Shown: piece by piece, positions 954 to 63,329 of the stretch
Layout of the letters: each line of letters opens with the position of its first letter
Position numbering within the stretch: the first letter of the stretch is position 1
From: Somniosus microcephalus
Taxonomy: Eukaryota
DNA: 64,000 nt
Direction of reading: 5' to 3'
NCBI GenBank assembly: GCA_052327205.1
Contig: JBMRGM010000043.1
Coordinates: 31,124,001-31,188,000, forward strand
Program-made: the position numbers and the translations under genes
The notes under the pieces: model-generated
Seen by the model: only the letters and a program-made list of their open reading frames with translations
Told to the model about the DNA's origin: nothing
Databases searched by the model: none

Positions 954-1082
954 GCTAACAAGAATGGTCCCAACGACTATTGTGTCACATACGCCATAGT
1001 TAACCGTGCAAACACTGAAGCTAGTTTGGAAGGAGGCCCAATGGAAGAAGGCTGTGTCTACGAAAACTTTCCACGGAAATAA
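954..1082 (+). CDS. Terminal cytoplasmic exon of an upstream FCRL-like paralog: ANKNGPNDYCVTYAIVNRANTEASLEGGPMEEGCVYENFPRK* (ITIM plus distal Tyr motif)
   Basis: Pyrimidine-rich acceptor ttcctgttcattaattccag ending at 953, phase 0, stop TAA 1080-1082. VTYAIV fits the ITIM consensus (I/V/L/S)xYxx(L/V). AATAAA near 1663 and 1759. This frame is not in the ORF track. Confidence 0.75.
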   Translation, partial: ANKNGPNDYCVTYAIVNRANTEASLEGGPMEEGCVYENFPRK

Positions 1083-2059
1083 GAGCAAAGCAGGATTAAC
1101 AAGCATAGAAACAACAAAGAAAACAGAATGGAGGCAACGGCAATCAACTTGTGCTCTGCGCAAATTACCTGCCCTCAGGGACTTTAGTCTGAAGGCAGGT
1201 TAGGCCATTGTTCCTTGTGCAAGGCCTTCTAGGCACAGAGTTCGTGCCCGCCAGCCATTCAATTTATACGTATGTTTTACTCTGACAGGACTTTATATCT
1301 CTGCAGCTTATATTTTGCAGAGGGCTCCTACCTCTGGCTTTGGTGGTGCTACCTGCAAGACTATACTGTTTGTAAGACCATTACATCAGAATGTATACCC
1401 ATTTTATCCATGTTAAAATGCAATTAACTAACGGGCGTGTTGGGGCTCTTGCTCTAATATTCTGCCAGTGTTCTTGAATGCTTCCGTAACTGCAGAGGGA
1501 GATCAGTAGATCTTCTGGAGAAATTATGCAAATGGCCGAAGGTGGGAGAAAACCTGTAGCAATTTCCAGGGTCAATTTTTTCTTTAATAATGTTGTAAAA
1601 TGAATGCTATCAAATTGACCGCTTGTATAACCCCACGGCCTATTTACTTTTCCATTATTTTGAATAAAGGAAAAGCGGGCATGATGTACAATGGGAGCCT
1701 TGATTGATATCATACATTTCCCATCCTCGCCCAAATTCCAATCTATCTGACTGCCACAAATAAACTGTGTATAGAGTAACTGGTTACTGCTTAATCTTCA
1801 TCACCTTAGGGTTTAGCATTCGAGGGGCAGAGCGCAGGGTAATACATCTGGCGGGGAGGATGGCTTGTTACTTGCAAAACCCATCGAATTTTGCTTTCTT
1901 TCAGCCTTTAAACATCAGGCCATTCCGTTACCGGTATCCCTCTTGCCAAATCTTCCATCCACATTCTGGCGGTAAAGTCTGAACTCTACCTCACCATATA
2001 TTAGTGCCAAATGCATAAGACATAGCGTTTTGTATTGCTACATGATATGATGGGATTTT

Positions 2060-3010
2060 AAAAATTACACAGAATTTAAAGCACAGTAACCGGCCATTCT
2101 GACCAACTGGTCTGTGCTTGTGTTTATGATGCACACGAGACTCTTCTCACCTTCTTTCGTCTAATCCTATCAATATCTCCTTTAATTCCTTTCTCTCATA
2201 TGTACTTATCTAGATTACCCTTTAAGATATCTGTGTTGTTAGCCTCCACCACCTAAACTTCTGGAATTTCTATAAGTGGACTCCTCTTCTCTATGCCTAC
2301 CCTATCAAACCCCTTCATAATTTAAAATAACTCTACTCGTTCTCCCCTCAGACTTCTGTTTTCTACAGAAAAGAATCCCGATCTATTAGTTATATCTTGA
2401 GAGTTAAGACGTTTCATTTCTGGTATAATGCTCCTCAATACGTTTTACCTTCTCTTTTTCCTCTATGCATTTTGTAATATATAACAATAAAGAACATAAG
2501 AAGTAGGAGCAGGAGTAGACCATATGGAGCCTCGAGGCTGCTCTTGCATTCAATAAGATCATGGCTGATCTTCAAACTTAACTGCACTTGTTTGCCCGGT
2601 CTCCATGTCCCATGTATCCACTAGAATCCAAAAATCGATCTTATCTCAGCCTTGAATGTACTGAACGATTCTGCATGCACAGCTAATTCGGAAAGAGAAT
2701 TCCAAAGAGTAACTAACCTCTGAGTGAAGACATTTCTCCTCATCGCTGACCCATATCTTGAGACTATGCCCCCTAGTTATAGACTCTCCAGCCAGGGGAA
2801 ACAGCCTGTCAGCATATAACCTGCAAATCCCCCTCTGAATCTTATGTTTCAATGAGCTCACCCCTCATTCTTCTAAAATCCAGTGCTTATGGTCTCAATC
2901 TACTCAATCTCTCCTCATCGGACAACCCTCTCATCCCGGGAATCAATCTAGTGGAGCTGCATTGAACCGCCTCTAAAATGGAGACCACAAGTGTACACAA
3001 TACTTTAATG
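2060..3010 (-). mobile_element. Two adjacent CR1-type LINE 3' fragments
   Basis: ORF 2646-2861(-) 'RLFPLAGESITRGHSLKI' is the CR1 ORF2 C-terminus; tail aagaacataagaagtaggagcagg near 2490. Confidence 0.8.
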
Positions 3011-3889
3011 TGGCCCAACTACGTTTCTATACAAATTTGACATGGCTTCTCTGCTTTTCAATGCATTTCCTCTAGAAATGCACGCCAATACTTTGGTAGC
3101 ATTTTTAGGGCCTTGTCAAATTGCGTTACTAATTTTAATGATTTGTGAATGTGTACCCCTGGATACCTTTGCTCCTCTGCCACATTTAGATTCTTATTTT
3201 GCGAGGATAAAGTGCTTCCTCATTCCTTCTACCAAAATTCACAACCTAACTATGGTAAAATTCGCTTGCCATGTAGATGCCCATTCAGCATGATTATTAC
3301 CGTCTTTTTACATTTTATCGTGCTTCGACAATAACTTTTTATCGCTGAATAATAAATATAATGTTAAGAAATATTCCCTGTTGTTCACAGATTGAGACAT
3401 AAGTGTAAGTCTATTCACTAGGATTTCAACAAACCTTCTGCTAATTCAATGCACAAATAAAATGGCTTTAGTTTGAAACTGGGCAATGACCATGCCTTTC
3501 TGCCGGTGTTTCACTGGAGACTCTCTCCCAATGATTGGGTAGGACAGGGGAGGAAAAATGTATTTCTGGTGTCTTTCACTCATATTCCGGTGCATATTTA
3601 AAATATATATATTTATTTTAATCAATAAGTATTCTTGGATGCAGCACAATATGAATATGGTAACAATTAATTCTGAAGATGGCTCCAAAATGATTAATTA
3701 CTTTTTCGGAAAATTAGAGAATGTAATAACAAAAAATTTGTTAGTTTCTTATGGGCATTCCATATATTTATATAGCGCATTCTCAGTCTGTTTTAATCTA
3801 CCTATCGAACTAACACTCTGTGTTTGACTTACGACCTATCTAAATATCTGTCTGTTTCTTCATCCTCAGTCTAACAAATAATCAAAGGC

Positions 3890-5290: not shown

Positions 5291-5479
5291 CAATATTGTG
5301 TGGCTCAAGGAGATGCCCCATTTAAGCCTCGTTTTGGGCTTCAGTTATTTGAGAGTCGAATCACCTATTTGCTAAACATTATTGACGGAATTAAGCTCTC
5401 GGGACTTAAATGGTTAATCGTGCCAGGGTGTACCACCTCCCTTACCCCTCTACCGTTGTACCAGGCCACATACACAGAG

Positions 5480-6039: not shown

Positions 6040-6070
6040 ATGATTCACATCTGTCGCCTTCTGACCTTGT
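6040..6070 (+). CDS. Gene A leader exon S1 (MIHICRLLTL)
   Basis: ATG 6040, 31 coding nt, phase-1 donor gtaagt; conserved in four copies. Confidence 0.7.
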
Positions 6071-8801: not shown

Positions 8802-8831
8802 TGCAAATTACTCATCAGGCGACCACACAAG
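8802..8831 (+). CDS. Gene A leader mini-exon S2 (LQITHQATTQ)
   Basis: ttctctcttgcag | 30 nt | gtatga, phase 1-1; copies at 34877 and 44211. Confidence 0.75.
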
Positions 8832-11130: not shown

Positions 11131-11379
11131 CCCATGTCCCAGAAGTAGTCCTTAGCAATCCGAGCGATGGAATCGTGAAAGAAGGGGAGATATTTTACCT
11201 GCAGTGTCGATACAGAGGCATGAATAAATGGGCTTATTGGTATAAAGATGAGACTTATATTCATTTTAAATATATGTTCTTTGAAAGATATGCAGATAGT
11301 CGCAGTGGAGCGTCTTACCAGTGTTCAGTGCCTTGGTCCTCCTCTGAGAAGAGTAAACCTCTGGATTTAGTCACCATTG
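11131..11379 (+). CDS. Gene A Ig domain exon 1
   Basis: ttctacag | 249 nt | gtaggt, phase 1-1; KEGEIFYLQC...WYKD...SGASYQC. Confidence 0.85.
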
Positions 11380-13195: not shown

Positions 13196-13462
13196 CTTCT
13201 GATATGAATTTAACTCTGGAAGTGAATCCAACATCTGCACTGTCAGGTGACAGTATTATCCTGAAATGTTTGATGCCTTCCTGGAAATGGAGAGAAGGTT
13301 TTCCCTTCCTGTGGTATCGAGATAAACAGTTAATAGCAGAAACTGACGAATCTCAGTACACCATAGAAAACGCAAAAGAGTCAGATACGGCACCATATCG
13401 GTGTGAACTCAAAATACGTTACAGGAAGTGGATCTCCCCGAATGTAACCATCACCATAAAAA
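13196..13462 (+). CDS. Gene A Ig domain exon 2
   Basis: ttttttgcag | 267 nt | gttggt; SGDSIILKC...FLWYRD...DTAPYRC. Confidence 0.85.
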
Positions 13463-13850: not shown

Positions 13851-14250
13851 GGTGGCTGGGTGGTGACAGAGTGATGTAACTGTGAATATTTGCAGAATTC
13901 ACAGTGATCATAGTAGATGTTGAGACACAGCAGGGAATAGCGAAAAGAGCAAAGTTCTATTGAAGGATTCATACTTGAATAAGTCTTGCACAGCGTGGAG
14001 TTCCTGTATCAGCAGAATATATTAAGCAGATTAAGTTCTCCGCAAACAAAGCAGCGAGTGGAAATCCATAACAATATAGTAATGCTGCCTACTGGAGTGT
14101 TCCACAATACAGCTGCTGGTTACCATTTAGTACAGTCGCACCTCGTGGTGGTTCTTGGTATATCCTTGCTCTTGTTATCAATAATCTCTGCTATTTGTTT
14201 AACTATATGAGATGAATTCTTACCTCCCAATCCATATTCTGTTTTCACCG

Positions 14251-14527
14251 AACTCTTCTCCAAACCTAAACTGAGGACTGAGCCTGCAGTTAAAATATTT
14301 GAGGTAGACCAGTTAAAATTCATTTTTTTATTGAAACAATGCTGTTCAATATTAGGCTTCAATACACATTTCACAAAAATGGCAAAGCTCTGCAGTTGAA
14401 TTCATACATCAACTCTAAGCACATGGGGGCAGCTTCTTTGAAGGGCTCGGTGACTTAGCCTTGTTGAGCAAATGCTTTCTACCACCGTGATAACAACAGA
14501 GTGATGAGGTTTCCATTACGGTAGAAG
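14251..14527 (+). pseudogene. Dead Ig pseudo-exon in gene A (paralog of 49909 and 55974 exons)
   Basis: Acceptor reads ttttcacCG instead of cacAG; first Cys codon lost, indels and stops. Confidence 0.85.
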
Positions 14528-15860
14528 GTAAATAGAACCAGCTGTAATTACTGTTCATCTTTCATTTAAAGAATTCTTCAGGGGATTATAGATAAATAAA
14601 TATACGGGAGGGATCCAATGTGGAAAAAGATTTACTCCCAGCTTTATCACATAATAAATCAATTTTGGATGTGATCTGTTTAAATCAAAGCGCCACCTGG
14701 TTCTATAAAAAATCCATACATTTACTGAAACCCACACTTGTAATAGCTGCAACGTTTGAAGACCAGTGTCCACTCCCAGTGGCTAATATTAGCTTCCTGC
14801 AATAGTGTCGAATGGGCGATACTGAATTTGCCTCCCATTATATGTCCCTCCCGTGTTTGCGTCGCATCATTATCATTGGACAGGAACATCGTGCGTGGTG
14901 TACAATTGGTGCAAGATTCGATACCACGCGTTTTACACCATGGATCCAAGGTCAAGTTACCTCCTCTGTTTCTGTCTGACTGAATCAGCAACGAGCAGAA
15001 CCTGGTCAGGAACAGCACGGTGTTTAATCAGACAGTGCCTTACCACTTACTAGTCCCGGCAATCGTTGCTAGCTGAAATCTCGGTGCTAAAATTTAACTT
15101 GGAGAGTGCAGTAGATAATTGGCAGACAAGGAAATCGAATTTCACCTGTGTGTAGATAGTATGGCCAATGAGCTACTACCGGTTTTGCACCCCAGACAAA
15201 CTTGAATTTCCACCCCTCCAATTTCAGTAGAGGGGGATGACGGGGTGGCAAAACGCCGGAGGCTATTGAAGGCTGAGCCTCTGATGTCCGGCCTCTCGAT
15301 TGCATTCAGTTAGAATCTGCCAATCATAACTCTATCTTTACATTTTAAAAGGAGCAGGCAATCAGAACACCAAGTGGGTGTTATCGATCCTGTGTCATCA
15401 GTGGATTTTCAAAGAATTGCATTGTCCATAGCTGAGCGTTTAACATGAATGTCCTAAAATGTGAAGGTGCTGCAACAATGACCAATGAGGTTTCAGTATT
15501 TAAGACTTGGGCATAAAGCATCGCCTGGGCGGAGAGCAGAGTCCAAAATCTGAGTGGGGGGAATGGGGTGGGCTGAAGAGGGATAATCTCACAGGACCCG
15601 CAGGATGTTTCCTCCATTCATTTTAACGGAAGGGTTAACTTCTCCCCAAATCTAGCCACGAGAGTATGTTCAGATGTCGGTGTTCCAAAATGCATCTTCC
15701 TATAAACCGAGTGCAATCAAGGATTATTGAACGGCTCTTTCTTTGAACCGCTGTCAGCATTTCATTGCTCTGATCATTAACTTGTGTTATCCAAACAAAT
15801 ACTTTCATAAATCTTTGAGAGATGCTTCAGCTGGTAAATCTATTTTTTACTCTTTTATAG

Positions 15861-16139
15861 AGCTCTTCTCCAAACCTACATTGAGGGCTGATTCTGAAGC
15901 TCAAATATTTGAGGGCCAACAGTTAAATCTCGCATGTTCGGCTGAAATATTTCGCTCCAGTTCGTCTTTGAGATATGTATTTTTCAAAGATGAACAAGCT
16001 CTCAATTCAGCGGCAGACCACAACTATTACATCAAGGAGACAGCACTGCTGGACGATTCGGGGATTTACCAGTGTGAAGCAAGTACTTTGAACAGTGAGG
16101 TGAAGAAACTGAGTAATCAGGTTTCTGTTTCAGTCAGAC
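15861..16139 (+). CDS. Gene A Ig exon, FcR/FCRL D3-type
   Basis: ttttatag | 279 nt | gtgagt; ELFSKPTL..FEGQQLNLAC..LRYVFFKD..DSGIYQC. Confidence 0.88.
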
Positions 16140-17018: not shown

Positions 17019-17306
17019 GAATCCCAGTGTCCAAACCGGAACTGGCAATCAGCCCTGGTAAAGAGTTACTGGAAGGCGACACAGCGTCGTTAACCTGCTC
17101 AGTGTTCAACGGTTCTACCCCGATTACCTACATATTGTACAAAGGCCCAAATAAAGAACTCTTCCGAGAGGAGTCCAACCTAACCGAAATTACTTACCAA
17201 ATCGGTAAAGTCAACCAAAGCACCCAAGGGGATTATATTTGTGGTGTTTCAAACGAAGCGACCAGACGTCCTCTACACAGCGATTTTGTTACGGTTGCAG
17301 TGCTAG
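17019..17306 (+). CDS. Gene A membrane-proximal Ig exon, FCRL D5-like
   Basis: tttacag | 288 nt | gtgagt; IPVSKPEL..LTCSV..GSTPITYILYK..GDYICGVSN. Confidence 0.88.
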
Positions 17307-17694: not shown

Positions 17695-18282
17695 TTTGTA
17701 TATGGGATTGGGCGTCGCTGGCAACATTTGCTTTAATTGGCCATCCCTAATTGCCCTTGAGAAGGTAGTGGTGAGCCACCTTCTTGAACCGCTGCAGTCC
17801 ACGTGGTGATCATCCAAATTCAGTACCCTGTCCCTGCTTTCTACCCACATCCCTTGATCCTGTTAGCCTTAAGCAACATATCTAACTCCTTCTTGAAAAT
17901 AATTAATGAATTGGCCTCAACTTCCTTTTGTGGTAGAGAATTCCACAGGTTCTCCACTCTCTGGGTGAAGAAATTCCTCCTCATCTCTGTTCTAAATGGC
18001 TTACCCCTTATCCTTAGACTGTGACCCCTGGTTCTGGACTCCCCGACTATCGGGAACATCCTTCCTGCATCTAATCTGTCGAGTCCTTTTAGAATTTTAT
18101 ACGTTTTATTGAGATCCCCTCTCATTCTTCAAAACTCCAGTGAATATAAGCCCAATTGACCCAATCACTCCTCATACGGCATTCCTGTCATCCCAGGTAT
18201 CCGTCCAGTTAATCAGCGCTGTACTCCCTCCATGGCGAGAACATCCTTCCTCAGATAAGGAGAACATCCTTCCTCAGATAAG
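17695..18282 (-). mobile_element. LINE 3' tail fused to a CR1 3' fragment
   Basis: 17695-17805 matches the insertion at 59080; ORF 17841-18125(-) is the CR1 ORF2 C-terminus; 22-bp tandem duplication at 18238-18282. Confidence 0.85.
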
Positions 18283-18472
18283 TTACTTGAGGGCCAACAG
18301 TTAAAACTCGCCTGTTTGGTTGAAATATTTCGCTCCAGTTCAGCGGCAGACCACAACTATTACATTAAGGAAACATCACGGCCTGACGATTCGGGGACTT
18401 ACCTTGGTAAAGCAACTACTTTGCACAGCGAGGTGAAGAAACTGAACAATCAGGTTTCAGTTTCAGTCAGAC
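18283..18472 (+). pseudogene. Truncated, internally deleted D3-type Ig pseudo-exon
   Basis: 5' end and acceptor missing, the LRYVFFKD segment deleted, second Cys lost (YLG); donor gtgagt retained. Confidence 0.85.
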
Positions 18473-18665
18473 GTGAGTACAATTTACTGCAATTATCTAT
18501 CATCTTTCATCCACTAAATTACCAACACATGCACACAATGGGATTCTTCATTCTGGCACAGGGCTTATCTATATGTTTAAGATGCACTGTATAAATAAAT
18601 GAATATATCCGTACATACTTGAAACCGTATTATGTTATTCATGGGATATGTTTATTTTATTCCAG

Positions 18666-18767
18666 TGCAGATTCACACAACCGCGATCAGAGCCTCAGTT
18701 TTTACACTTTTTCTTGTTGCTGCCCTGATTGCACTGGTACTCGTCAATCGTCCCAACAAGAAACAAG
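18666..18767 (+). CDS. Gene A transmembrane exon VQIHTTAIRASVFTLFLVAALIALVLVNRPNKKQ
   Basis: ttttattccag | 102 nt | gtgagt; same length as and alignable to 60551-60652. Confidence 0.85.
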
Positions 18768-19291: not shown

Positions 19292-19322
19292 AAAATTCTT
19301 CAAGAATTTCACAATCGTTTGG
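19292..19322 (+). CDS. Gene A cytoplasmic exon 1 (ENSSRISQSFG)
   Basis: ttttatccag | 31 nt | gtaagt, phase 1-2; homolog at 61179-61209. Confidence 0.78.
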
Positions 19323-22657: not shown

Positions 22658-22743
22658 GGAGGCAACTAGAAACAGACCTCCAAGTGAAGAGAATTCTGCA
22701 GACAATTCCGAGTCTGCAGGTGTGCGATCAGCTCAAAGCACCG
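22658..22743 (+). CDS. Gene A cytoplasmic exon 2 (EATRNRPPSEENSADNSESAGVRSAQST, no Tyr)
   Basis: cacttag | 86 nt | gtaagt, phase 2-1; aligns to 63238-63329. Confidence 0.78.
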
Positions 22744-24220: not shown

Positions 24221-24774
24221 CTGAAGGCAATAGTTGAAGCAAGCATGTTATTCCTACAAGTGACTAAAGAACGATATTGCTGGGGAGCACCTCAGTTCGT
24301 GATGTTCATTCAAAGCAAAAACTGTCAATCGTCACGATTCAACCACGATTTGGATTTTTCTTCACAAGAGCCTCTATGTACAGAAGCTGATTCATTTCAT
24401 TGCTGTATACAGCTGTTGATGCCTCATCACAGAGAATAAGGGGCCCAAGTTGAATAACTTCAGCATCTGTTTCTGGATGTAGATGCCATGAGGCCAATGA
24501 TCTAATGAAACTTTTGATAAACTAGCTTCCTGACTGTGCCTGAAATATTTTCATTCTGACCTAAATGACTTTCGATCGCTTGGACATTTCGCTTGTATAC
24601 GCCAGATTAATAACTGCTTACCTCCCAGATGTTTCGGGACATCTTCTGATTGATTGATTTCGCCTGGAGTTTCTGTATTGGTACTAATTGTCTGCTTATA
24701 AACCTGGATGTATCATTTCAGCTACTGAAGAATTGGATTAGGTTCTGGACAGTTTCATGTGTAAGCCTTATTCA

Positions 24775-25190
24775 TAAGAACATAAGAAATAGGAGCAGGA
24801 GTAGGCCAATCGGCCCCTCGAGCCTGCTCCGCCATTGAATTAGATCATGGTTGATCTGATCCTAACCTCAAATCTACTTCCACTCTCCATCCCACCCGAA
24901 CCTATGTGATCTACAAGGAGAGGAGAAAAACCAGATAAAAAAACCCAATGGCCAATTTGGGAGAAAAAATCTGGGAAATTCCTCTCCGACCTATCTAGGC
25001 GATCGAAACTCGTCCAGGAGAGCACTCTGTCCATGTCATTCCTACAGTACTTACCTTCTGTAAAAGGTGATCCCCACCCCAGCCAGCAACAGGCCCAATT
25101 TACTCTTGAAGGACACCTAGCTGGCAGCCTGTTCCCGAGGTCTCCACTAATTCCTGTGAATAGAACCATCTCCTGAAATGTAGCACAGAA
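24775..25190 (-). mobile_element. Stacked LINE 3' UTR fragments
   Basis: cataagaacataagaaataggagcagg tail at 24775, followed by a second tail-like segment. Confidence 0.55.
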
Positions 25191-25192
25191 TT

Positions 25193-28120
25193 AGAACACA
25201 AGAAGTAGGAGCAGGACCAGGCTACACGGTCCCTGGGCCCACTCCGCCACCCACAGAGCCATGACCGATCCGAACCTAGACTCATGTCCAATTTCCTGCC
25301 CGCTCCCCGTAACCCCTAATTCCCTTTACTTCTCGGAAACTGTCTATTCCTGTTTTAAATTTATTTAATGATGTAGCTTCCACAGCTTTCTGGGGCAGCA
25401 AGTTCCACAGACCTACTACCCTCTGTGTGAAGAAGTTTCTCCTCATCTCAGTTTTGAAAGTGCAGTTTCTTATTCTAAGATTATGCCCCCTAGTTCTAGT
25501 TTCACCCATCATTGGGAACATCCTCACCGCATCCACCCGATCAAGCCCCTTCACAATCTTATATGTTTCAATAAGATCGCCACTCATTCTTCTGAACTCA
25601 AATGAGTAGAGTCCCAATATACTCAACCACTCCTCATATGTCCACCCCCTCATCCCCGGGATTAACCGAGTGAACCTTCTTTGTACTGCCTCGAGAGCAA
25701 GTATGTATTTTCTTAAGTATCGACACCAAAACTGTATGCAGTATTCCAGGTGCGGTCTCACCAATACCGTGCATAACTGCAGCAATACCTCCCTGTTCTT
25801 ATATTTTATCCCCCTAGCAATAAAGGCCAACATTCCATTGGCCACCCATGCCAGACTATTTCCCCAATTCCATGATCACCTGCTGCACCTGCATACTAAC
25901 ATTTGGAGTTTCATGCACCAGGACCCCCAGTTCCCTTTGTACTGCAGTACTTTCCAGTTTCTTGCCATTAAGATAATAACTTGCTCTATGATTTTTCCTG
26001 CCAAAGTGCATAACCTCACACTTTCCAATATTGTATTCCATCTGCCAAATCTCTGCCCACTTATTAGCCTGTCTATGTTCCTTTGCAGGTTTTTTATGTC
26101 CTCCACACTCACTACTTTCCCTCCCATCTTTACATCTTCTGCAAACTTTGCTATGTTACACTCGGTCCCCTCCTCCAAATCGTTAATATAGATTGTAAAG
26201 AGTTGAGGACCCATCTCTGACCCCTGCTGAACACCACTAGTTACTGATTGCCAGTCTGAGAATTAACCATTTATCCCAACTCTCTGCTTTCTGTTAGATA
26301 ACCAATCCTCCACCCATGCCAGACTATTACCCCAATTCCATGATTTTTTATCTTGAGCAATAATCTTTTGTGTGGCACCTTGTCAATTGCCTTTTGGAAG
26401 TCTAAATACACTACTTCCACTCGATCCCCTTTAATCACCCTGTATGTTACGTCCTCAAAAAACTCAAGCAAATTTGTCAAACATGACTTCCCCTTCATAA
26501 AAGCATGCTGACTTTGTCCTATTAAATTATGTTTATCCAAATGTCCCGTTACTGTCTCCTTATTAATGGACTCCAAAATTTTACCAACCACAGATGTTGG
26601 GCTAACTGGTCTATAGTTTCCAGCCTTCTGCCTACTACCCTTTTTAAATAAGGGTGTTACATTAGCAGTTTTCCAATCTGCCAGGACCTTTGAATACAGG
26701 GAGTTTTGGAAAATTATTACCAATGCATCCACAACCCCTACCGCCACTTCCCTCAAGACCCTAGGATGTAAGCCATCAGGCCCAGGGGATTTATCCGCCT
26801 TGAGTCTCATCCTCTAAGGGACCAACATTTACTTTAACCACCCTTTAACTTTTTATATAACTATAGAAACTCTTGCTATCTGTTTTTATATTTTATTTAA
26901 TTTACTTTCATAATCTATCTTCCCTTTCTTAATCAATTTTTTAGATATTTTTTACTGTCTTTTGAAGACTTCACAATCTTCTATCCTCCCACTAGATTTG
27001 GCTACCTTATATGCCCTTGTTTTTAGATGGATACTTTACTTAATTACTTTACTTAGCCACAGATGGCTGTCATTTCTTTTACACCCTTTTTTCCTCAGTG
27101 GAATATATATTTTTTGAAAGTTGTAAAATAACTCCTTAAATGTACACCACTGCTCATGTACCGTCTTACCCTTTAATCTATTTTCCCAGTCCACTCTAAT
27201 CAATTCCGCACTCATAACTTCATAGTCTCCTTAATTCAAGCTCAGTACGCTTGTTTGAGATCCAACCTTCTCGCCCTCTAATTGAATATGGAATTCAACC
27301 ATGTTATGGTCACTCATTACAAGGGGATCCTTTACTAGGACATTTTTAATTAATCCTGACTCATTAAACAGGACCAGATATAAGGTTGCTTGCCCCCTGG
27401 TCGGTTCAGTTGCATACTGCTCAAGAAACCCATCCCTAATGCACTCAATAAACTCTTCCTCAAGGCTGCCCTGCCCAATTTGATTTGTCCAGTTAATATG
27501 ATAGTTAGAATCCCCCATAATTATAGCTGTTCCCTTATTCCAAGCCCCAACTAGTTCCTGATTAATACTCCGTCCAACAGATTTGCAACTTTTAGGAAGC
27601 CTATAGACTATGCCCACTAGTGTTTTCTTCCCCTTATTATTCCTTATCTCACAATCCTGATCCTTTGACCCAATATCATTTCTCTGTATTAGTGATTCCT
27701 TCCTTTATTAACATAGCCACCTCACATCCCCTTCCTTCCTGCCTGTCCTTCCTGATTGTTAAATACCCTGGTATGTTTAATTCCCAGTCATGGTCAACCT
27801 GCAGCCATGTTTCTCTAATGGCCACAAGATCATACCCATATGTCGTTATTTGTGCCGTTAACTCGTCCATTGCGTTACGAATGCTACGTGCATTCAGATA
27901 AAGAACTTTCAAATATGTTTTATATACTTAGTCCTTGCTTTTTCCCCTTTTACTACTTTACATTTTACTCCATACCTTCTGTCCCTTCCTGACACGCTCT
28001 GATTTTTAATTCCCCTACTGTTACCTAGGTCTATGACCTTCTCCGTTGTCATTTTTATTATTTGCTCTCTAGAAACCTCCCCCCCACCACTTATTAGTTT
28101 AAAGCCCTCTCTACAGCCCT
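25193..28120 (-). mobile_element. Long degenerate CR1 LINE (endonuclease and RT of ORF2)
   Basis: 'KVLYLNARSIRN', 'GIVYR..IIMGD..SDHN', 'KSPGPDGLHPRVLRE..NYRPVS..YLDFQKA.DKVPH', 'HLEYCIQFW'; frameshifts and stops. Confidence 0.95.
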
Positions 28121-29429
28121 GAAGCTATTCTTTCTGAAGCATTCCGAATATTTGTTACCCTAATAATTCTCTGCAGGACAATTTATTTCAGTGCTATGTT
28201 TCCTTGAATATAACATATTGACGTTGGAGCACACCGATTGGCCGATTTTAACTTGGCTGTATCATTTCAGCTCCTGATCAGTTAGGTTCGGGCCTCGATA
28301 TTTTCACGTAATAGCTGATTGGCTTTATGTAAACTTGGCACTCTATTTTGGCAGCTGAATAAATAATTTTAACTGGAATGATTCTCTGCTGGCTGCCCTC
28401 TTTCAGTGACGGGATATTCCAACATTTCTCATGGCATTCGGAGAAAACTGATTGGCTGATTGTAAGCACAGTGGGCTCTTCCAATATAAAAATAATCGCA
28501 ATTACTATTGCAACACATATGATCAGGAGATGGTAACGTACCCGTCTGAAGTCTGTTCCCCATTACTGAATGAACAACACAGTACTGAGCGCATTCTGCT
28601 TTTCAATGGCAGGTGGAATCAATATCTTAGGAAGGGAATATTCTGACTGATCTGTAACATGAATCGTCTTTCTTATAAGATAACTAATTAGATGAATGAT
28701 TAACTATTAGAAAGCCTGAACATGAAATAGCTACGTTGGTTATTGTTGAACAGACTGGGGAAGGGGACGAATCTCTGGTTGAAAGGGTGAAGAAGTGCGA
28801 ATTTTTGAAATAAATCTGAGTGTGGAGATGCCGTGTTGGATAGTTTGAACATGAGCGCCGGGTCTGATACACTTGTTTATTAACCTGACCTGTATCACCC
28901 GTGACTTGACTCACTGAAAGTGATGGAGGGGTGGAGGGGGGGACTCTTGCATGTTTAACGCTGCTGTGTATGAAAATGTTGCTGCAGTTAGTCCAAGCAC
29001 AGTATGTGACTTAAAGGAAGTCGACAGCGGTACAGGTGATTTACTGATACATTGGGTACAAACACAATTTCAGATGGATGACAGCATAAGTGCAGGCAGC
29101 ATCATTGATTAGTGAGGACAATGATATTGAAGCATATTTAAAAGCTACTCACAGTTTGATGTGGTGTAAATGATTCACAGCATAATAGTTTCGCCACAGA
29201 CTGAGGCAGGCAGGATTGGTGCTCGACACATGGCATTTTAGTGCCTTGAAGAAAGACTGGGGAGGATAGTATTTTGTGACTGAATGTCGAGGAGAACTGA
29301 AGATTCGCTGACAGACTGCATTTTACAGACTGGAACAATGGTATTATCCTTTGCAGTTAAAATCCAGACAAAGCGACATGGACAAGATTTAATTGGTTTA
29401 TAACATATTAGTAAAAATATAACTTTTTA

Positions 29430-30260
29430 AATACAGGATAACAAAACTGAGTAAGTGTTATAATCATTACTATTTAGATTGTTGTTAGACAACCGATATT
29501 CTGGTCATGCTTGGGACAGGAGTACAATTATTGATTCACAGCCAGCCTGCTCAGGGACACGAATTATCAAAATAAAATAGAAGCTGATGGTGTGAATGAC
29601 TTGCAGGCAGGTTGGGGATGAAAGTTATTACCAACATCCAAAGACTTGGACATCTGAAGTATAATTTGAGAACCAGCAATGGACAGGGTTGATGCCAGTA
29701 CGAGAGCAGGAACTAATAGAGATGCAGTGGAGAGGGTCAATATTGGGACTGTACCCAAACTTATAGGGCAATTTAGAGAGGGTGCAGAAGAGATTTATTA
29801 GAATGGTTCCCGGGATCAGGGTTTACAGTTACGTGGATAGACTACAGTAGCTGGGGTTGTTCTCCTTAGAGCAGAAAAGGCTAAGAGGAGATTTGATAAA
29901 TGTATTTAAAATCATGAAATGTTTATGTAGATTAAATAATTGAAAATCTTTCCAATGACTGAAGGATCGATAACCAGGGGGGAGAGAATTAAGTTGATTG
30001 GCATAAAAACAGACGCGACATGAGGAAAAATTATTTTAATGCAACGAGTGGTTATGATATTGAATTCATTGCCCAATAGAGTGATGGATGCAGATTCAAT
30101 AGCAGCCTTCAATAGGGAATTGGATAAATACTGGTAGGAGAAACAAACTTCAGGGATATGGGGCATAAGCGGTGCTGTGGTACCTTGAAAGAGCCGGTGC
30201 AGATTCGATGGACCGAATGGCCTCCTTCTGTGCTGTACTATCCCATGCTTCTATAAAATT
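29430..30260 (+). mobile_element. Old CR1 3' fragments
   Basis: Degenerate RT C-terminus and tail 'gaccgaatggcctccttctgtgctgtac'. Confidence 0.75.
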
Positions 30261-31640: not shown

Positions 31641-31671
31641 ATGAAGAACATCTGTCGCCTTCTGATCCTCT
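31641..31671 (+). pseudogene. Orphan leader exon S1, module 2 (MKNICRLLIL)
   Basis: 31 nt with donor gtaagg; upstream non-coding donor mutated to ataagt (31129); no Ig exon before the next leader. Confidence 0.65.
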
Positions 31672-32239
31672 GTAAGGGAATCTCAAATATCACTAGTGCC
31701 TTTGAAAATCTGCGTCATTCACCCCGGACCCACAATCAGATTAATAAGGCTCATTCTGTAAAAGGCAGCGACGCACTAAATTGATAGACAGTTTCTGAAA
31801 GTAAGACATTTATTTAAAATGCGTTGAAATGTCCTTACTATGTTTCAATTTTAATCTGAATTTAGTGCAACAATGCTGAGTTTGATTAGTCAGGGTAACA
31901 GGATCTTTCTGCTCATCTAAAGAGATCCACTTTACTATAACAGGTTGCTTCTAAACAGCATAATATTTTTGCTTTACCAATTATTTAGCCTCACCTGCAG
32001 AAACAGCTTTCAAATGTCTAATTTTTTTAGTTTTGTTTATAAGTAGGAATTAACAGCTTATGCACTTCATATGAAGTGTCGGCGTTGTCCCATTTGTTTC
32101 ACTCTTACTAAATGCTATTAATAAATGCGGTGAGCTTTGCAGTGCTTGGTTTCTGTGGCTAGCTGTTAATCTTGGTCTAAAGCATTGCTTCATGGTTTTG
32201 TGTGGCACAGGCTGGCTTCTTGTTTAACATCTGCTATAG

Positions 32240-32870
32240 AGAGACTGGGATAAAGATAGATTTATAGAGAGATAGAGAGGGACAAACTTTCACACAGACA
32301 CAAACACACACACACAAGCAGATAACGAAAAATGCAGAGAGAGACCGAGACAGAGATAGAGTCAAAGAGAGAGAGATGGAGTCAATGAGTCAGAGTGAAA
32401 GAGGAAGATTAACACACGAGAGAGAAAGAGTCACAGAGATACCTCAAGTCATAGACACAGATGACTGAGAGAGAGAGACACACAAAAAGAGGCAGAGAGA
32501 GAGAGAGAACATGAGGGAGAGACAAGGAGGTACAGACACATAGTTAGACACACAGGTAGAATGGAACAACATGCAGTGGCACAGATAGCCAATGAGAGAG
32601 AGAGAGCAACAGAGAGTGACATGCAGACAGTTACACTGACATATAAGGCAAGTCAGAGAGAGAGTGAGACCGAGAGTTATAGAGGCAAACAGATGAAGAC
32701 CGGGAAAGTGTGACAGAGAAAGATTCAGCAAGGGACAGACAGAGAGAGCCAGAGACAGACAAGCAGAAGGCAAACATTCAGGGAGGCGGTGGGCTAAAGA
32801 TTCCGTGAGAGAGAGCGAAAGAGAGAGAGGCAGAGCGAGAGACACACAGATAGGGACAGAGCGAGAGCAT
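32240..32870. repeat. GA/CA-rich low-complexity tract
   Basis: Degenerate (GA)n/(GACA)n; paralog at about 40870-41540. Confidence 0.9.
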
Positions 32871-33920
32871 TAGTTTTTTTTCACTCACCTATGAGCAAAC
32901 ATTATGATTATATTTTTTAAATTACTGGTGTAAGGGAGAGCAACATACCGGGCACCATTTTGAATTTCAGGCTCATTTAATATCTGCTGCCAAACCTGGA
33001 GTTAACAAAGCTGAAGAGATAACAGTTACTTTGATTTAGCTTGAACTAAACTGACGGCTTCAAGGCTTTTGGCAACGAAATTTATAATTGTAGATCTTTA
33101 ATGTTAATGTCTGATGCAATTTACTGGCATTTAGACTGAAGTGATTCCTTACGGTCAAATGTCATTGAGACTGCCTTGCTGTGAGATGCTGATGTCAGCG
33201 CTCTGTTGTCTGGTTAGCCAATACACCACAAGAGATGAAAACAGGAACAAATAACGGGGTTTGCATCTTTAGTGTACCACAGGCTCTTTTAGCAGAACCT
33301 CATCTATTTTAATAACATGACATTAGTTGTGGGACCATGTCAGCCACAGCTAGTTCCACAGCTTAATGCGGTAAATCTTAAATGATGATAAGTAATTCTT
33401 AACTTGTCTGTTCTTGGCCTTATAATCGCCCCCATGTTTTATTTGTTGCACAGCACATAAAATCCACCTTGTGAAAATAATTGGCCAAATTAAATACTTG
33501 AATCATTCACCTCATTGAATCCTAGCTGGACAAAAGGCCCAGGTTCTACATGCTAAACAATGAAATACACACACATCTGCATTGATCATTGACCTTTTTG
33601 CAATTATTTTTGAAAAGGTTGCAGCATTAGGCGTTGCCTTAGTAGTGTGATTCCTCTGGTCTGAGGCGTGTTAAAATATTTCTGCAGCCAGCTGCTTGAT
33701 CATGCACTGTCTTCACGAGCAACATTTGCCACCCAGTCAAAACTTGTGATGCTGATTAGGCTAAAGATGATTTAAATGATGATAGAAACATTTGAAATGG
33801 AGTAGCCCATTCAGCCCTTCGAGGCTGCTGATTTTTCATTCAACTATACAATGGGTGATCTGTACCTCAACTCCAATGACCCCCTTTTGCTCAATATACA
33901 TTGTTGCCCTCACTCAACTA

Positions 33921-34310
33921 GTGTCAGCCGTGGCTCAGTGAGCAGCATGCTCGACTCTGAGTCAGAAGGCTCGTGCATTCAAGTCGCACTCCAGAGATTT
34001 GGGCAAAAAATCTGGGATCAAACTCCAGTGCAGTGCTGTGGGAGTGCAGCATTTTCAGAGGTGCCGTCTTTCGGATGGTACGTTAAAGCGAGGCCCCGTC
34101 GGGGAGATTATCCCCGGTGCCCTGGGCAATATTTGTCCTTCAGTCAACATAACATAAACAGATTATCTGGTCATTATCATCATCACTGTGTGAAAATTGA
34201 CTGCTACTCTTCCTACAGTGACTACACTTCAAAAGTACTCCACTGGCTGCAAAGCGCTTTGGGAAGTCCTGAGGTTGTGAATGGCGCTCTAAAAATGCAA
34301 GTCTTTCTTT
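33921..34310 (+). mobile_element. SacSINE1/DeuSINE-like SINE (module 2 copy)
   Basis: Aligns to 7843-8235 in the same flanking context. Confidence 0.75.
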
Positions 34311-34876
34311 TTTTAACTAAAATATATCTTGATCGCCGTATTGGCCGTTCCAATTTACCACCAGATTCCACAGCGCTCTTAGCGGAGTGAGTTGCAATTT
34401 CTCAATACACAATGCATGAAAAGGTGCTTCCTGATTTCCATCCTAAATGGACTACCACTAATTTTGAAGAAATGTTCTCTTCTCCATGACAGAACAAACA
34501 CACTCATTGGCTCTCAGAACAATGACTCATTTCAATCTTTGTCAGTTTCCTTTCATCTGGCAGCAACTTTTCCATGTAGTACTCAGACCATTAGGATCTT
34601 CAACAATAAAAACATCTTATCTTTCTTCGTGAGATGGTCAATTGACATAATTCGATGTATTAATATTTTACATTTACATCAACAGAACTGAATACCTGGC
34701 AGAACGTATAGACTAGCAGCAAATGTGGTACCGCCTGTTTTGTGTCCCTGCCGAAGTCGAATTTCTCCTCCTGGGTATTTCCTCTATTCAGCTGCTTTAC
34801 AGATGAGCAGCTTTGGTCCAATTTGAAGATGGTCTCAGATAATGAAACACATTTTACATTGTCTTCTCTCTTTCAG

Positions 34877-34906
34877 TGCAAGTTACTCATCAGTCGAACA
34901 CACAAG
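34877..34906 (+). pseudogene. Orphan leader mini-exon S2, module 2 (LQVTHQSNTQ)
   Basis: tctctttcag | 30 nt | gtatga; 3 substitutions versus the other two copies. Confidence 0.65.
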
Positions 34907-35729
34907 GTATGATGACAATAATCTGCATTATTGATAATCCAGTTTGTGGAATGAACGCTTCCAATTTATAGCTATAGGACAGCAGCAATCAAGCAATGAA
35001 GTCATTTTCAGCTTCCGCCCGAGCATGAAACTGCGTTCTGGAATCGCCACCTATAACGGAAAAGCTCGATCATCATTTTCATTGATTCAGGGTGAATTGA
35101 AAGTGGGCGGTTTCTCTAATGGTCGGCCAATCAGAACCCCATTTGTAAGCCTTAACGTAAAGTTTAATGTCTACCACAATATATTAAAGACAAAGTGACC
35201 TATAAATTGGTGTGGGTAACTGTCAGCTCATCGGCTGAGGATTGGAAGCGTGTAATCATAATTGAGTAAATAAATGGATGGATAGATCGACAGGTCTAAG
35301 ATGAAATAACAACAAATGTTGATGAAATTAGGGTGTTACTCTTGTGATTAGACTTTGCAAAAGCGCTTAATGAAGTTCCACATAATAGACTTGTTTGTGA
35401 AATAGAAATCAAAGTATTAAGGACAACATAAGGGGCGTCAGCTTATCATAAGAAGGGACACGTGACCTTCAATTGCCACGATTGTCGCTATGGCTTTTCG
35501 GGTTATAGATCTATTGGTCGTTAATCAAGTGCTTTTAAGGAAATATTCTAAAGGATGTCATACCTGTACTTTAACATATTCCAATATATACTTACTTTAT
35601 ATTTCTTCTGATTAATATACAACATTTTCAGTCTGTTGTTATCTACATATCGATGTATCTCTTTTTGATTGTCTTACCATCTATCTAAGTATCTGTCTGT
35701 TTATTCATCGACAGTATAGCAAATAATCA

Positions 35730-36430
35730 AAGGCAGGCACCAATAGGACAGATTAGGTTCCAGTCATAAATTGTATCAGTAAAATAGTCCAGGTACTAAC
35801 CATAGACCTGTATCATTAGGACAGTGTAATTGATAAACATAGGCCTGTACGAGTAGGAAATAAAGTTTGAAAAATGTGCCGATACCAAAAGGACAGTATA
35901 GTTACAAATCAAAAACCTGCAGCAATAGGACAACAGAAACAGTCATCAAAATACCTCAGCCAGTATGACAGATAAGGTATTAATCATAGGCCTGCATCAA
36001 TAGGACGGTATAGATAGATAATGATTAGAGACATGCAGCAGTCGGACACTGCAGGCATTAATCATAGACCTGTATCAGAAGGACTGTGAATGTACTGAGC
36101 ATTGACCAGCACCAGTAGGGCTATATATGTTGTAATTACTAACTGCATGAGTAGTAAATTAAAAGTTCCTTATCTAGCGCATCTGTGTCGCATCCAGTTC
36201 TAGACCAACACCAATAGAACTGTGGAGATTCTAAATAGATTTCACTGCAGTAGTATAGAGTTGGTATTTATCGGCGATCTGGGCAATGGGGACAGTATAG
36301 CTACTAAAAGCTGACCTGTACTAGTGGTGGAGTCAAGTACTGATGACATACATTCTGCAGTGGGAGAGTCGAGGCAGCAATCATAGACCTGCACCAGTAG
36401 GTGATACCTAGAGAGAGCCCCAGAGAGGAA
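35730..36430. repeat. Degenerate ~37-bp minisatellite
   Basis: Paralog of 3890-5290 without the MITE. Confidence 0.75.
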
Positions 36431-37215
36431 CAGAACTATGCGGCTCAAGGAGTCGCCCCATATAATCCTGGTTTTAGGCTTCATTAATTTGAGTCGAATC
36501 ACCTAGTTGCTAAACATTACTGACTGGATTAAACTCTCGGGACTTAAATGGTTAATTGTGCCAGGGTGCAACAGTTTCAGTGGTCTGATGTTTCACTGGT
36601 ATTAGCACTTCGCCTCCGTTCCCCCTCTACAGATGTACCAGGCCACACACACAGAGCTGGGGTGACCACTTCCCTAAGCCCTTGAAAAAAACAAGCCTTC
36701 AAACTGGGGCCACAGAGCAGGCCAGTCTCTCTTTTAACGTTATAAACTGCGGTTAGAATAAATCGTATTTATAACAGATTCAAGCGATGACTCCGGCCTG
36801 GAATCCAACTGTTCTCTTCTGATAAAAATTAATTTTAAAACTGACAGGGCTCAGTTAACTTTTCAGCGTTAGGTTGGATTCGTCACCGTGTACGGTTTAA
36901 TTTCCTCTTGTCTCAAATGTGGTCAGAAGTCAAAGTGATCTCAGTGTGCAGTCGCCTGGTGCATGGACAGTGAGCCCCACAGCTGCAGACTGCTGTCGGG
37001 GCACTCGCTCCAGCCGCTGTCTCCTCATTCCCCATAAGTACAGACTCGGGATCTGCGTGTGCGGGCGTTTGGTACTGAAGAATTAGCACAGAGTCAGCGG
37101 CTGAATGTGATTCTATGATCTCACTTTTCAGGTGAACAGAACTGAAAACAGCTGATCCGAAGCTCGCGTCTTCACAGAGGGAGGTGGACTGCTGCTCAGG
37201 TCCCCCGCATTCGAA

Positions 37216-37246
37216 ATGAAGCACATCTGTCGCCTTCGGATCTTCT
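37216..37246 (+). pseudogene. Orphan leader exon S1, module 3 (MKHICRLRIF)
   Basis: 31 nt with gtaagt donor; Leu to Arg in the hydrophobic core; upstream donor ataagt (37034); module ends near 39370 without S2. Confidence 0.65.
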
Positions 37247-60550: not shown

Positions 60551-60652
60551 CACAAAGTCACACAACCGCGATCACAGCAGCCGTTCTTCCACTTTTTCTG
60601 ATCGCTACCCTGATTGCACTGGTTTCCTTCAAACTTCGGAAAAAGAAACAAG
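60551..60652 (+). CDS. Gene B transmembrane exon AQSHTTAITAAVLPLFLIATLIALVSFKLRKKKQ
   Basis: ttgattccag | 102 nt | gtgagc; uncharged hydrophobic span followed by a basic stop-transfer cluster. Confidence 0.87.
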
Positions 60653-61178: not shown

Positions 61179-61209
61179 ACAATTCCTCAAGTGTTTCACA
61201 GCCGCAGGG
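61179..61209 (+). CDS. Gene B cytoplasmic exon 1 (DNSSSVSQPQG)
   Basis: ttttatccag | 31 nt | gtaagt. Confidence 0.78.
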
Positions 61210-61509
61210 GTAAGTCTGCAAAATATTTGTATTTGTCAGTCATAACTATATCCATGATTATACTGAAAGGGTGAAAATCGTCTTTGGCATGGTTGCAAAT
61301 CAGGCGGCATTGCATCTACCACCATTTATACGCCCCTGAATTGAACTGAATATTGGATGGACATTGATGGGCGGTAGGGGCACTTCCGTCAGTTATTCCT
61401 CCACGCCCAATTCGAATTCTCCCCGTAGTATCTGATATAGCTCCGCTGGAGACAGTTACAATTTTTAAGAGCTAAATATTACCTTATTTTTGTTTTTGCT
61501 TTTTAGTTT

Positions 61510-63115
61510 ATCAACAGGCCAGTCAGCCTAACATAGTTATTTGAAACCATTATTAGGGAAAAAATAAACTTTTATTTGGAAATCATGGTTTAATCAAGGA
61601 GATCCAACATGGATTTGTTGAAGGCAAATCGTGTCTGACAAACTCGATTGAATTCTTTGATGAGGTAACAGAAACTTTTGATCAAGGTAGTGTAGTAAAT
61701 GTTGTATATATAGACTTTCGGAAGGCAGTCGACCGAGGCTTGTTAAAAAATATGTAAACTCATGGGATTAAGGGAACGTGGCGGTATGGATAGGGAATTG
61801 GCTCGGTGACAGGATGCAGAGTGTGGTGGTGGATGGATGTTTCTCAGACTGGGAGGCGGTTTTGCAGTTGTGTTCCCCAAGGGCCAGTTTGGGGTCCATA
61901 ACTCTTTGCAATTGCAATGAGCGACCGAGATTAAGGTGTTGGGGGCAACATTGTAAACTTGCAGATGACACATAACTTGGCCAGGTAGTAGATAGTGATG
62001 AGGATACTTGTAGTCTTCAGGGTAACATAGACAGGAATGGTTAAATGGGCAGAAGCATGGCAGTTGGAGTTCAACCCTGAGAACTGCGAAGTGATGTACT
62101 TCTGGAGAACTAATCTGGAAAGACAATATACAATAAAGGATTCGATTTTGAAAATGGTGGATGAGCAGAGATGACTTGATGTGCTTATAAACAAATTCTT
62201 AAATATGGCAGGACAAGTTGCTAAGTTGGTTAAAGCAGCATAGGGAACACTTGTATTTTTTAAATATCGGCTTAGAATATAAAAGCAAAGAGAACATGCT
62301 AGAACTTTTGAAATCAGTAGTTAGACCTCAGCTGGCCAATTCTAGGCAGCAACTTGCCAAGGCTGCTTCGACAGCACCTCCGAAACCCGCTATCTCTTCC
62401 ACCTAGAAGGACAAGGCGCATCAGAACACCACCTCCGAGTTCCCCTCCAAGTCAAACACCATTCTGCCTTAGAAGTATATCGCCGCTCCTTAATCGTCGC
62501 TTGGGCCAATGTCCTGGAACTCCCTCCCTAACAGCACTGTGGGAGTACCTTCACCGCACGGACTGCAGCGGTTCAAGAAGGCGGCTAACCACCACCTTCT
62601 CAAGGGCAATTAGCGATGGGGAGTATATGCTGGCGTTGTCAGCGACGCCCACATCCCAAATACAAATAAAATCACACTTCAGGAAACATGCAAGAGGCAA
62701 AGAAAGCATACAGAGGATGTTTACAGGATATTACCAGGGATGAGGGACTTTATTTACGAGGAGTGGTTGGAAAATTAGGAGGTGGAAGAGAGAAGGTTAA
62801 GGGGTGAGTCAATAGTGATTTTCAAGAGGACGAGAGGTTTTGTTAGAGTAGATAGAGAAACAATATTCCCTCTTGATCAATAACTAGAGTTCATAGATTT
62901 AACATCATTGTAAAAAGATCTTGAGGGGAGATGTGGAGAACTATTTTTCATTCAGAGAGTTGTCGGTATCTAGAACACTCCAACTGAAAATTTGGTGGAA
63001 GCGATTTCCATCAATAACTTTAGCAGTTAATTGGACGGATCTTTGAGGATGAGGACCTTACAGGGCTGCAGACAAAAGCCAGGGATATGGGACTAAGCAA
63101 GATTGCTCCTTCACG
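61510..63115 (+). mobile_element. Old CR1 RT fragment with a nested LINE 3' end (about 62340-62670)
   Basis: Degenerate QHGF..GKSCLTN.IEFFDEVT and WIGNWL.DR.Q.VVV motifs; the insert matches the 70-650 tail. Confidence 0.82.
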
Positions 63116-63237
63116 GAGTTCGATGTTCTCTGTAGCTACTGCTGAATGTTTCTATGATGCTGTAACATTTCGTTGAAAGTGAACTTTGAGTTGTTGATGC
63201 ATGAATCCTTAATATCTAAGAATATTTTCGTGCAAAG

Positions 63238-63329
63238 GGTGACAACTGAAAATAGATCTGTACCTCCGAGTGAAGAAACATCTGCGAGCAATTTCGAGTA
63301 TGCAGTTGGGGGATCAGCCCCAAATACTG
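63238..63329 (+). CDS. Gene B cytoplasmic exon 2 (VTTENRSVPPSEETSASNFEYAVGGSAPNT); gene continues past the window
   Basis: gtgcaaag | 92 nt | gtaagc, phase 2-1; aligns to 22658-22743. Confidence 0.75.

Follow-up and report, generated by a model that had tools for sequence, protein, structure and literature searches.

Organisation of the window

The window analysed here is a stretch of 64,000 nucleotides (nt) from the 6.4-Gb genome of the shark Somniosus microcephalus (C43:31124001-31188000, where C43 is contig JBMRGM010000043.1 of assembly GCA_052327205.1), and it carries genes for immunoglobulin (Ig) domain receptors of the Fc receptor (FcR) type. It represents one repeat unit of about 70 kb, in which the end of one gene B is followed by a gene A and another gene B, and it contains two gene types, A and B (Table 1). 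From splice signals and homology, gene A is modelled as an open frame of 467 aa with four Ig exons, a transmembrane (TM) exon with Arg and a Tyr-less tail, two broken Ig pseudo-exons being skipped. For gene B the prediction is likewise an open frame, of 913 aa, in which eight Ig exons are combined with three immunoreceptor tyrosine-based inhibitory motifs (ITIMs). Outside the window, in four copies of a gene K, A's proximal exon is succeeded by one additional Ig exon and then by an uncharged TM and ITIM exons. The comparison of these genes points to gene A as an intact fusion of K with a further gene, E, and as probably the activating twin of K, signalling through the FcR-gamma adaptor.

A preliminary description of the window had counted three tandem paralogs. 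Positions 901-1150 are, instead, 100% identical (250/250) to the last exon of B itself, 70 kb downstream, and equally 100% identical to a copy 71.6 kb upstream; the supposed upstream gene is therefore another, preceding copy of B, and it was rejected as a third paralog. The motifs and codons quoted at the time are present. VTYAIV (984) and VYENF (1056) stand in a phase-0 last exon, the TM of gene B is uncharged with a Thr codon ACA at 60574-76, the TM Arg of gene A is encoded by AGA, and A has Ser (TCT) where B has Tyr (TAT, 63299-301). The NFEYAV of gene B was also found, at 63290, but Gly comes next, and for this reason it is not an ITIM. ITIMs expected in the downstream exons of B do occur beyond the window, as VTYSLV, LVYSEV and VTYAIV. 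The Ig exon of B at 51518-51796 lacks the second Cys; its sole in-frame join is with the D2-like exon that follows, a join to the one after leading to a stop.

Gene A as a fusion of genes K and E

The suggestion that the window belongs to a paired inhibitory and charged-TM family of FcR type is supported, but the pair consists of A and K rather than A and B. Gene A as the twin of B was rejected, the two sharing 41/82 residues in D1 (the distal Ig domain), 46/88 in D2, 70/92 in D3 and 79/95 in the membrane-proximal D5, against 76-80/82, 86-88/88, 87-91/92 and 94-95/95, respectively, for A and K. Positions 3500-17809 of the window are 99.3% identical to K over 14.3 kb, and from 17807 on the window is 97.7% identical to gene E, with the promoter and ectodomain of A matching K and its Arg TM and short tail matching E. 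Two repeats meet at this junction, and A is recognised as the derived form because both are cut in A yet continue uninterrupted in K and E. The junction is present in 6/6 A copies and 0/4 K copies, and repeat-derived RNA reads extend past it with K letters on one side and nearly E letters on the other. At C43:31.34-31.40 Mb, K stands directly before E, and a deletion of about 42 kb between two such neighbours would yield A. Gene A had earlier been viewed as an activating or decoy derivative of an inhibitory ancestor; what is found, rather than stepwise decay, is an inhibitory ectodomain fused to an older Arg-TM cassette.

All six A copies are open through the second cytoplasmic exon (S2) with AG..GT exons; three have four Ig exons, and the other three lack whole exons in frame. 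The K copy at 31.75 Mb is fully open (672 aa, three ITIMs), while in the remaining ones the frame of D6 is shifted, an exon is missing or an acceptor is changed. E has an interrupted D1 in the one copy examined. Over 11,784 aligned columns, the six A and four K copies display 149 variable sites, none of which is fixed between A and K. Mean identity is 99.66% among A copies, 99.55% among K copies and 99.61% between them, and the two are intermixed on the tree, on which the A and K labels require four changes. Unequal crossover or conversion may keep A like K in this way. On the sequence evidence, this shark has a genuine paired receptor system of FcR type, in which gene A is a recent K-E fusion.

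In the K genes the first ITIM exon is duplicated, one copy with Tyr and the other with His. Three DNA runs have contigs that agree with the cassette introns at 99-100%, and one of these runs may be the source of the assembly. Over 18777-24651, contigs of one run are roughly four times as deep as those of paralogs, against near-equal depth in another, hinting at a copy-number difference of the A/E cassette, although depth is no copy number.

One origin for the Arg-type membrane anchor

A DNA search with the TM exon of gene A listed 40 matches of 46 candidates, 21 of them at 88-100% identity and 19 at 78-81%. In the high-identity group, 11 are identical to the TM of A and eight more were read, with Arg in all 19; two were not fetched. 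Apart from the A copies, the five remaining A-identical TMs were assigned to E, two by direct reading and three by position. The Arg-type set reduces to seven distinct TMs, across which Arg is invariant (7/7) and four further changes are fixed. When the TM, S1 and S2 exons with their flanks were placed on a tree (seven distinct TMs of each type, and E, whose TM is that of A), the Arg and uncharged types were split at 100/100. The Arg TMs thus form one branch and the cassette has one origin, so that the association of Arg with missing ITIMs does not represent seven independent events.

ITIM exons follow 7/7 uncharged TMs, one set having stops. None was detected in 7/7 Arg types, the homologous 3' untranslated region (UTR) being reached in five, and 16 kb and 5 kb being searched in the two where it was not. 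The expectation that TM Arg would co-occur with loss of the S2 Tyr failed across paralogs, since the Tyr is kept in 6/7 Arg types and lost in A/E only. Arg tracks the absence of ITIM exons, not the Tyr-to-Ser change.

A stop at the ITIM Tyr, also proposed for gene A, was not upheld. The TAA at 28309-11 exists, but the candidate last exons of A have no detectable homology to ITIM exons. Profiles of the ITIM exons S3 and S5, built from 6-7 inhibitory genes, gave no match in the exon itself across the seven Arg-type 3' regions, and the matches of S4 fell in composition-biased stretches, with a bias near or above the score. The reverse search returned 3' UTR matches only, and it is the distal 3' UTR alone that is homologous between the two kinds of gene (E 1e-35 to 1e-75 in 5/7). 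In one paralog TAC occupies the position of the stop codon, and a Tyr-to-stop change at 28309-11, outside any demonstrated ITIM, is possible. With either candidate last exon, gene A acquires a short Tyr-free end. The stretch 28488-28520, which by eye resembles the last exon of B, received no backing from the profile searches.

A pair of the same design in Heptranchias

Among 7,996 proteins scored with an Arg-TM profile, one was recovered, Heptranchias P0172, a protein of 466 aa with an Arg TM and a short Tyr-free tail. P0173, which belongs to the same cluster, combines an ITIM tail with a TM that is uncharged and unrelated, and the two ectodomains are identical at 366/394 residues (93%). The TM of P0172 shares 25/33 residues with the Arg gene at C43 25.30 Mb, the Ig domains 50-66%, and its ectodomain corresponds to that of this gene (C43:25.27-25.30 Mb), not to that of A. 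The eight Arg rows including Heptranchias form one branch (88/98). Since the same Arg TM is found in Heptranchias on another ectodomain, this comparison of sequences makes the cassette older than the divergence of these sharks, which carry it on different ectodomains. At C43:25.625-25.655 Mb lies a likely counterpart of P0173, which may be the inhibitory twin of the Arg gene at 25.30 Mb.

Arg was found in 0/29 TM-bearing shark and ray homologs among P0001-P0030, its absence elsewhere being weakly tested. Among the proteins inspected from a 50% representative search, no other Arg-type shark protein turned up, and a protein search with the D5 exon found one protein.

Variation concentrated in the distal domain

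In nine copies, D1 has 14 variable sites in 249, compared with 72 in 6,539 (about 1.1%) in introns and the pseudo-exon, an excess with a binomial p of about 1e-6, the sites not being independent. Eleven D1 codons are residue-changing and none silent-only, two of them lying at an indel and being perhaps alignment effects; the corresponding counts are six and zero in D3, three and two in D2, and one and five in D5. One A copy and one K copy encode an identical D1 protein. The variable clusters map between the modelled strands B-C and F-G, in the BC and FG loops; of the 11 rows of the D1 fold alignment, one was from the other Ig family. The pattern is suggestive of a changing ligand contacted at the distal tip, and A and K would recognise the same one through D1.

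Predicted signalling and probable function of gene A

The genome contains two zeta-family TM exons, one on contig C40 and one on C14. The C40 TM exon, taken alone, best matches FcR-gamma (E 9e-13, versus 1.5e-9 for CD3-zeta) and keeps the TM Asp. FcR-gamma partners are marked by Arg in the N-terminal TM segment, with flanking residues largely exchangeable (PMC1440944), and the Arg of gene A lies in that segment. It would pair with the Asp pair of the FcR-gamma adaptor, while K and B would act as brakes via SHP-1/2 recruited to their ITIMs. A complex prediction with the Arg TM and two FcR-gamma-like TM chains scored 0.07 against a mark of 0.34 and speaks neither for nor against this. Activation through a different adaptor, a CD3-zeta-like or DAP10/DAP12-type chain, is very unlikely: the second zeta-family TM exon on C14 and the binding of catfish LITR 2.6b to both FcR-gamma-like and CD3-zeta-like chains (PMC4810170) would fit it, but an N-terminal Arg is the FcR-gamma pattern and DAP12 partners use a central Lys (PMC1440944).

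No RNA run is among the sequencing runs listed as containing this DNA. Expression was followed in two RNA runs of unknown tissue, whose species label agrees with that of the best-matching DNA run and of which 24% and 31% were read. At the window both yielded mostly reads of a long interspersed nuclear element (LINE). In one of them, mean depth reaches about 3.5 over D2 and D3 on the transcript strand, in reads that may stem from K or other paralogs.

Several observations weigh against an activating gene A. The two shallow runs have zero depth on its TM, S1 and S2 exons, with relaxed likeness too, and no exon joint appears among those listed from them. No run contig among those listed bridges the 17807-09 junction, and copies that are 99.5% alike might include assembly duplicates. 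Damage affects many of the neighbouring Arg-type genes, in which ectodomains are missing, stops occur or donors are changed. The ratio of nonsynonymous to synonymous polymorphism (pN/pS) of 0.96 in the Arg TM exon gives no signal of constraint within this genome; with 1.82 in the uncharged TM exon it is uninformative, and in both sets the TM exon has diverged about half as much as the introns. Catfish LITR 2.6b bound its adaptor without needing the TM charge (PMC4810170), and the Arg gene of the shark keeps separate tail exons, two in number, unlike Xenopus TM1 (PMC2413239). The Asn three residues before Arg (NxxR), typical of Xenopus TM1 (PMC2413239) and of mammalian activators of the leukocyte receptor complex (LRC; PMC6557307), is replaced by Thr in A and is present in 1/7 Arg TMs. 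In addition, Arg or Lys stands 1-3 residues further out in 8/29 ITIM-type shark and ray homologs, so that a basic residue at the outer border does not suffice as a diagnostic mark.

The lack of RNA reads on the TM or tail of A, the broken neighbours and pseudo-exons, and copies so alike (99.5%) as to be too young for stops to have accumulated would also suit a gene A that is a silent or neutral by-product of the recent deletion, passively multiplied with the 70-kb repeat. This is unlikely, given that A has the entire upstream region of K, that amino-acid-biased D1 variants occur in A as well as in K copies, that a pair of the same design is annotated in Heptranchias, and that the RNA depth is low and the tissue unknown. 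Alternatively, A may be expressed as a decoy, with its Arg at the outer membrane border, binding the ligand of K without a signal and dampening K's brake. The short Tyr-free tail, the missing NxxR Asn and the near-border basic residues of the ITIM homologs accord with such a role, which we regard as quite unlikely: a decoy has no need of a charged anchor, all seven Arg types share the Arg and four further fixed TM changes, and against Heptranchias the TM is conserved more closely than the Ig domains.

Because the NxxR Asn is lacking and the Arg codon is one base away from the codon of the shark's own inhibitory TM (Thr-to-Arg), convergence with the NxxR anchor would be the simpler reading. The Arg-type TM at C43:31540893, with Asn three residues before Arg, is a full NxxR and apparently a secondary gain.

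Family membership and genomic neighbourhood

The named relatives of the Ig exons in the window all come from sharks and rays. In the PDB, the D3 exon is best matched by D3 of FCRL5 and of Fc-gamma-RI and the proximal exon by FCRL5, which is also the best match (E 7e-59) of the Heptranchias relative. Fc-gamma receptors rank first by fold for the D1 model, and by sequence D1 has weak unrelated PDB matches only, with no FcR among them. FcR-family entries rank above LILR for D3, D5 and the D1 model, and the domains of A and B are accordingly not LRC-type. The leader is split into exons of 31 and 30 nt, departing from the rule of a 21-nt second exon, which only a fraction of Xenopus XFL genes follow (PMC2413239). 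By analogy, the receptors are taken to work like FCRL/XFL paired receptors; formal membership of FCRL is not claimed.

A genome search with the proximal Ig exon of B gave 41 matches with 150 of 280 candidates scored, the strong ones including 36 on C43, at 25.3-25.5 and 30.3-31.8 Mb. The FcR locus with its markers lies at human 1q21-23. Its neighbourhood is not shared by the shark cluster as far as two markers tell, an FCER1G-like gene and PEX19 being on C40 and the receptors on C43. The LRC is linked to TTYH1, PRPF31, CNOT3 and RPS9 (PMC6557307), and here synteny is partial. PRPF31 is on C43 at 16.3 Mb, and a third TTYH gene lies at C43:26.9-27.1 Mb between the sub-clusters. With TTYH2 on C21 and TTYH3 on C11, this gene would be TTYH1 by elimination only, as it does not itself rank TTYH1 first. 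CNOT3 is on C28, an RPS9-like gene on C41, and L28e-family matches on C30 and C23.

Moreover, an Ig exon family of LRC fold, with more than 100 exons at C43 21.5-42.5 Mb, extends on both sides of the cluster. The search for it gave 149 matches of 150 scored, most on C43 and others on C40, C39, C41, C22 and C37. Its domain model ranks CHIR-AB1 first (Z 15.0, root mean square deviation 1.5, 93 aligned), with NKp46, PirB and LILRs also at the top, and placement is by fold only, the exon giving no match to an LRC protein in the PDB by sequence. In 11 blocks of 10-40 kb around LRC-type exons, which do not cover whole genes, no convincing NxxR TM exon was found. At C43:21.515-21.534 Mb (- strand), two LRC-type Ig exons are followed, 14.6 kb downstream, by an Arg-type TM with S1 and S2, and the interval yielded no FcR-type Ig exon; this TM may belong to a fusion of an LRC ectodomain with the Arg cassette, or be an orphan.

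Comparison with known paired receptors

The Xenopus XFL genes resemble the shark family as a large tandem FcR-type family with exon shuffling and a split leader, comprising uncharged-TM members with ITIMs and Arg-TM members with short tails (PMC2413239). Their TM1 has NxxR and combines TM and tail in one exon, a state thought to be ancestral, and binding to FcR-gamma has been demonstrated for Xenopus (PMC2413239), while the shark pairing is deduced from sequence. Human FCGR2C, like gene A, joins the ectodomain of an inhibitory receptor to 3' exons of activating type within a segmental repeat (PMC6786274). The junction of gene A differs from that of FCGR2C in being a 3-nt join between unrelated repeats. 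The 3' exons of FCGR2C come from FCGR2A and carry an immunoreceptor tyrosine-based activation motif of their own, whereas gene A is without a Tyr motif and would need an adaptor.

LILRB3 and LILRA6 are twins of opposite signal, as A and K would be, with variable ectodomain positions in common, and they undergo exchange by unequal crossover and copy-number variation (PMC3894450). They differ in having LRC-type domains and an NxxR TM, the shark domains being FcR-type. The catfish LITRs are paired Ig receptors of fish related to both the FcR and LRC families, and the activating LITR 2.6b uses a TM Lys where gene A uses Arg (PMC4810170). With mammalian FCRL1-6 the shark genes share FCRL5 as best match, D3-like and D5-like domains and multi-exon ITIM tails; they differ in a second leader exon of 30 rather than 21 nt, in a location off the FCER1G-like/PEX19 contig and in the many near-identical paired copies of the cluster. 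Automatic RefSeq models of sharks and rays, named 'Fc receptor-like' or 'PECAM-like', belong to the same family and have the same tail motifs, P0172 being the one Arg form found.

The principle of paired receptors and chimeric activators is already known, and RefSeq lists such genes under automatic names. No description of paired FCRL-like receptors in sharks was found in the literature searched, with subscription papers largely outside its coverage. A survey reported no FCRL, FcR-gamma or LRC-type homologs in sharks (PMC4016189), and genes named fcrl3 and fcrl5 are expressed in bamboo-shark B cells (PMC11372145); the present shark genome has all three kinds reported absent. FcR-type twins of opposite design would push paired receptors and FcR-gamma coupling to the base of jawed vertebrates. 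Differing solely after one defined junction and sharing a hypervariable distal domain, A and K offer a ready test system, suited to asking by what route activating twins come about and which targets they pursue. The LRC-fold setting also bears on the common ancestry proposed for the FcR and KIR/LILR families (PMC2413239). As a tentative proposal, somewhat less likely to hold than to fail, sharks may have derived a portable activating cassette (Arg TM and short tail) from their own inhibitory TM, independently of NxxR, and repeatedly recombined it onto different inhibitory FcR-type ectodomains. On/off twins under pathogen-driven selection on D1 would have resulted, in a mixed FcR/LRC cluster that would reflect the state of jawed vertebrates before the Fc-receptor and KIR/LILR loci parted.

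Further features of the window and the cluster

Table 1. Features of the window, in window numbering
Feature	Position	Strand	Remark
Last coding exon of previous B copy	954..1082	+	ITIM VTYAIV, terminal VYENF; 100% to B last exon
Gene A leader exon 1 (31 nt)	6040..6070	+	K copies match at 100%
Gene A leader exon 2 (30 nt)	8802..8831	+	
Gene A distal Ig exon D1	11131..11379	+	Hypervariable across A and K copies; Fc-gamma receptors closest to model fold
Gene A Ig exon D2	13196..13462	+	
Broken D3-type Ig pseudo-exon	14250..14530	+	Stop, lost Cys, frameshift in most copies; common to K; can be skipped in frame
Gene A D3-type Ig exon	15861..16139	+	Best PDB match FCRL5 D3 and Fc-gamma-RI D3
Gene A membrane-proximal Ig exon (D5)	17019..17306	+	Best PDB match FCRL5
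Fusion junction	17807..17809	+	3-nt shared word between two cut repeats
Partial D3-type pseudo-exon	18280..18474	+	Brought along with the E cassette
Gene A TM exon with Arg	18666..18767	+	Arg codon 18689-91, then 18 uncharged residues
Gene A cytoplasmic exon S1	19292..19322	+	
Gene A cytoplasmic exon S2	22658..22743	+	Ser replaces Tyr at 22713-15
Candidate last coding exon, copy 1	24722..24741	+	Six codons then stop; splicing inferred
LINE insertion (reverse transcriptase)	24773..28090	-	Separates the candidate last exons; approximate ends
Candidate last coding exon, copy 2	28271..28311	+	Tyr-free, TAA 28309-11; common to Arg-type genes; splicing inferred
Stretch homologous to distal 3' UTR of inhibitory genes	28784..29558	+	E 8.7e-43
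Orphan leader exons between A and B	31641-71, 34877-906, 37216-46 (31641..37246)	+	
Gene B leader exons	40252-82, 44211-40	+	
Gene B Ig exons 1-4 of eight	45537-788, 46786-47046, 49909-50184, 51518-796	+	Ig exons span 45537..58697
Gene B Ig exons 5-8 of eight	52859-53116, 55974-56252, 57441-719, 58410-697	+	
Gene B uncharged TM exon	60551..60652	+	
Gene B cytoplasmic exons S1 and S2	61179-209, 63238-329 (61179..63329)	+	
Gene B, four further exons past window end	64310-66, 65116-81, 69554-85, 71069-197	+	Three ITIMs

The housekeeping markers are partly duplicated, with the last exon of TTYH occurring twice (C43:26.89-27.08 Mb), the RPS9-like gene twice (C41:30.93-30.96 Mb) and CNOT3 on two contigs (C28 and C984); these duplicates may be real or reflect uncollapsed assembly. 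On the TTYH2 contig, two related multi-Ig genes (C21:69.79 and 69.91 Mb) are 33-38% identical to D5, and from their position we take them to be possibly PECAM1-like. At C43:30.39-30.92 Mb the order of gene types is mirrored in a large inverted duplication centred near 30.67 Mb, and the genes of C43 25.28-25.33 Mb recur at 30.28-30.33 Mb.

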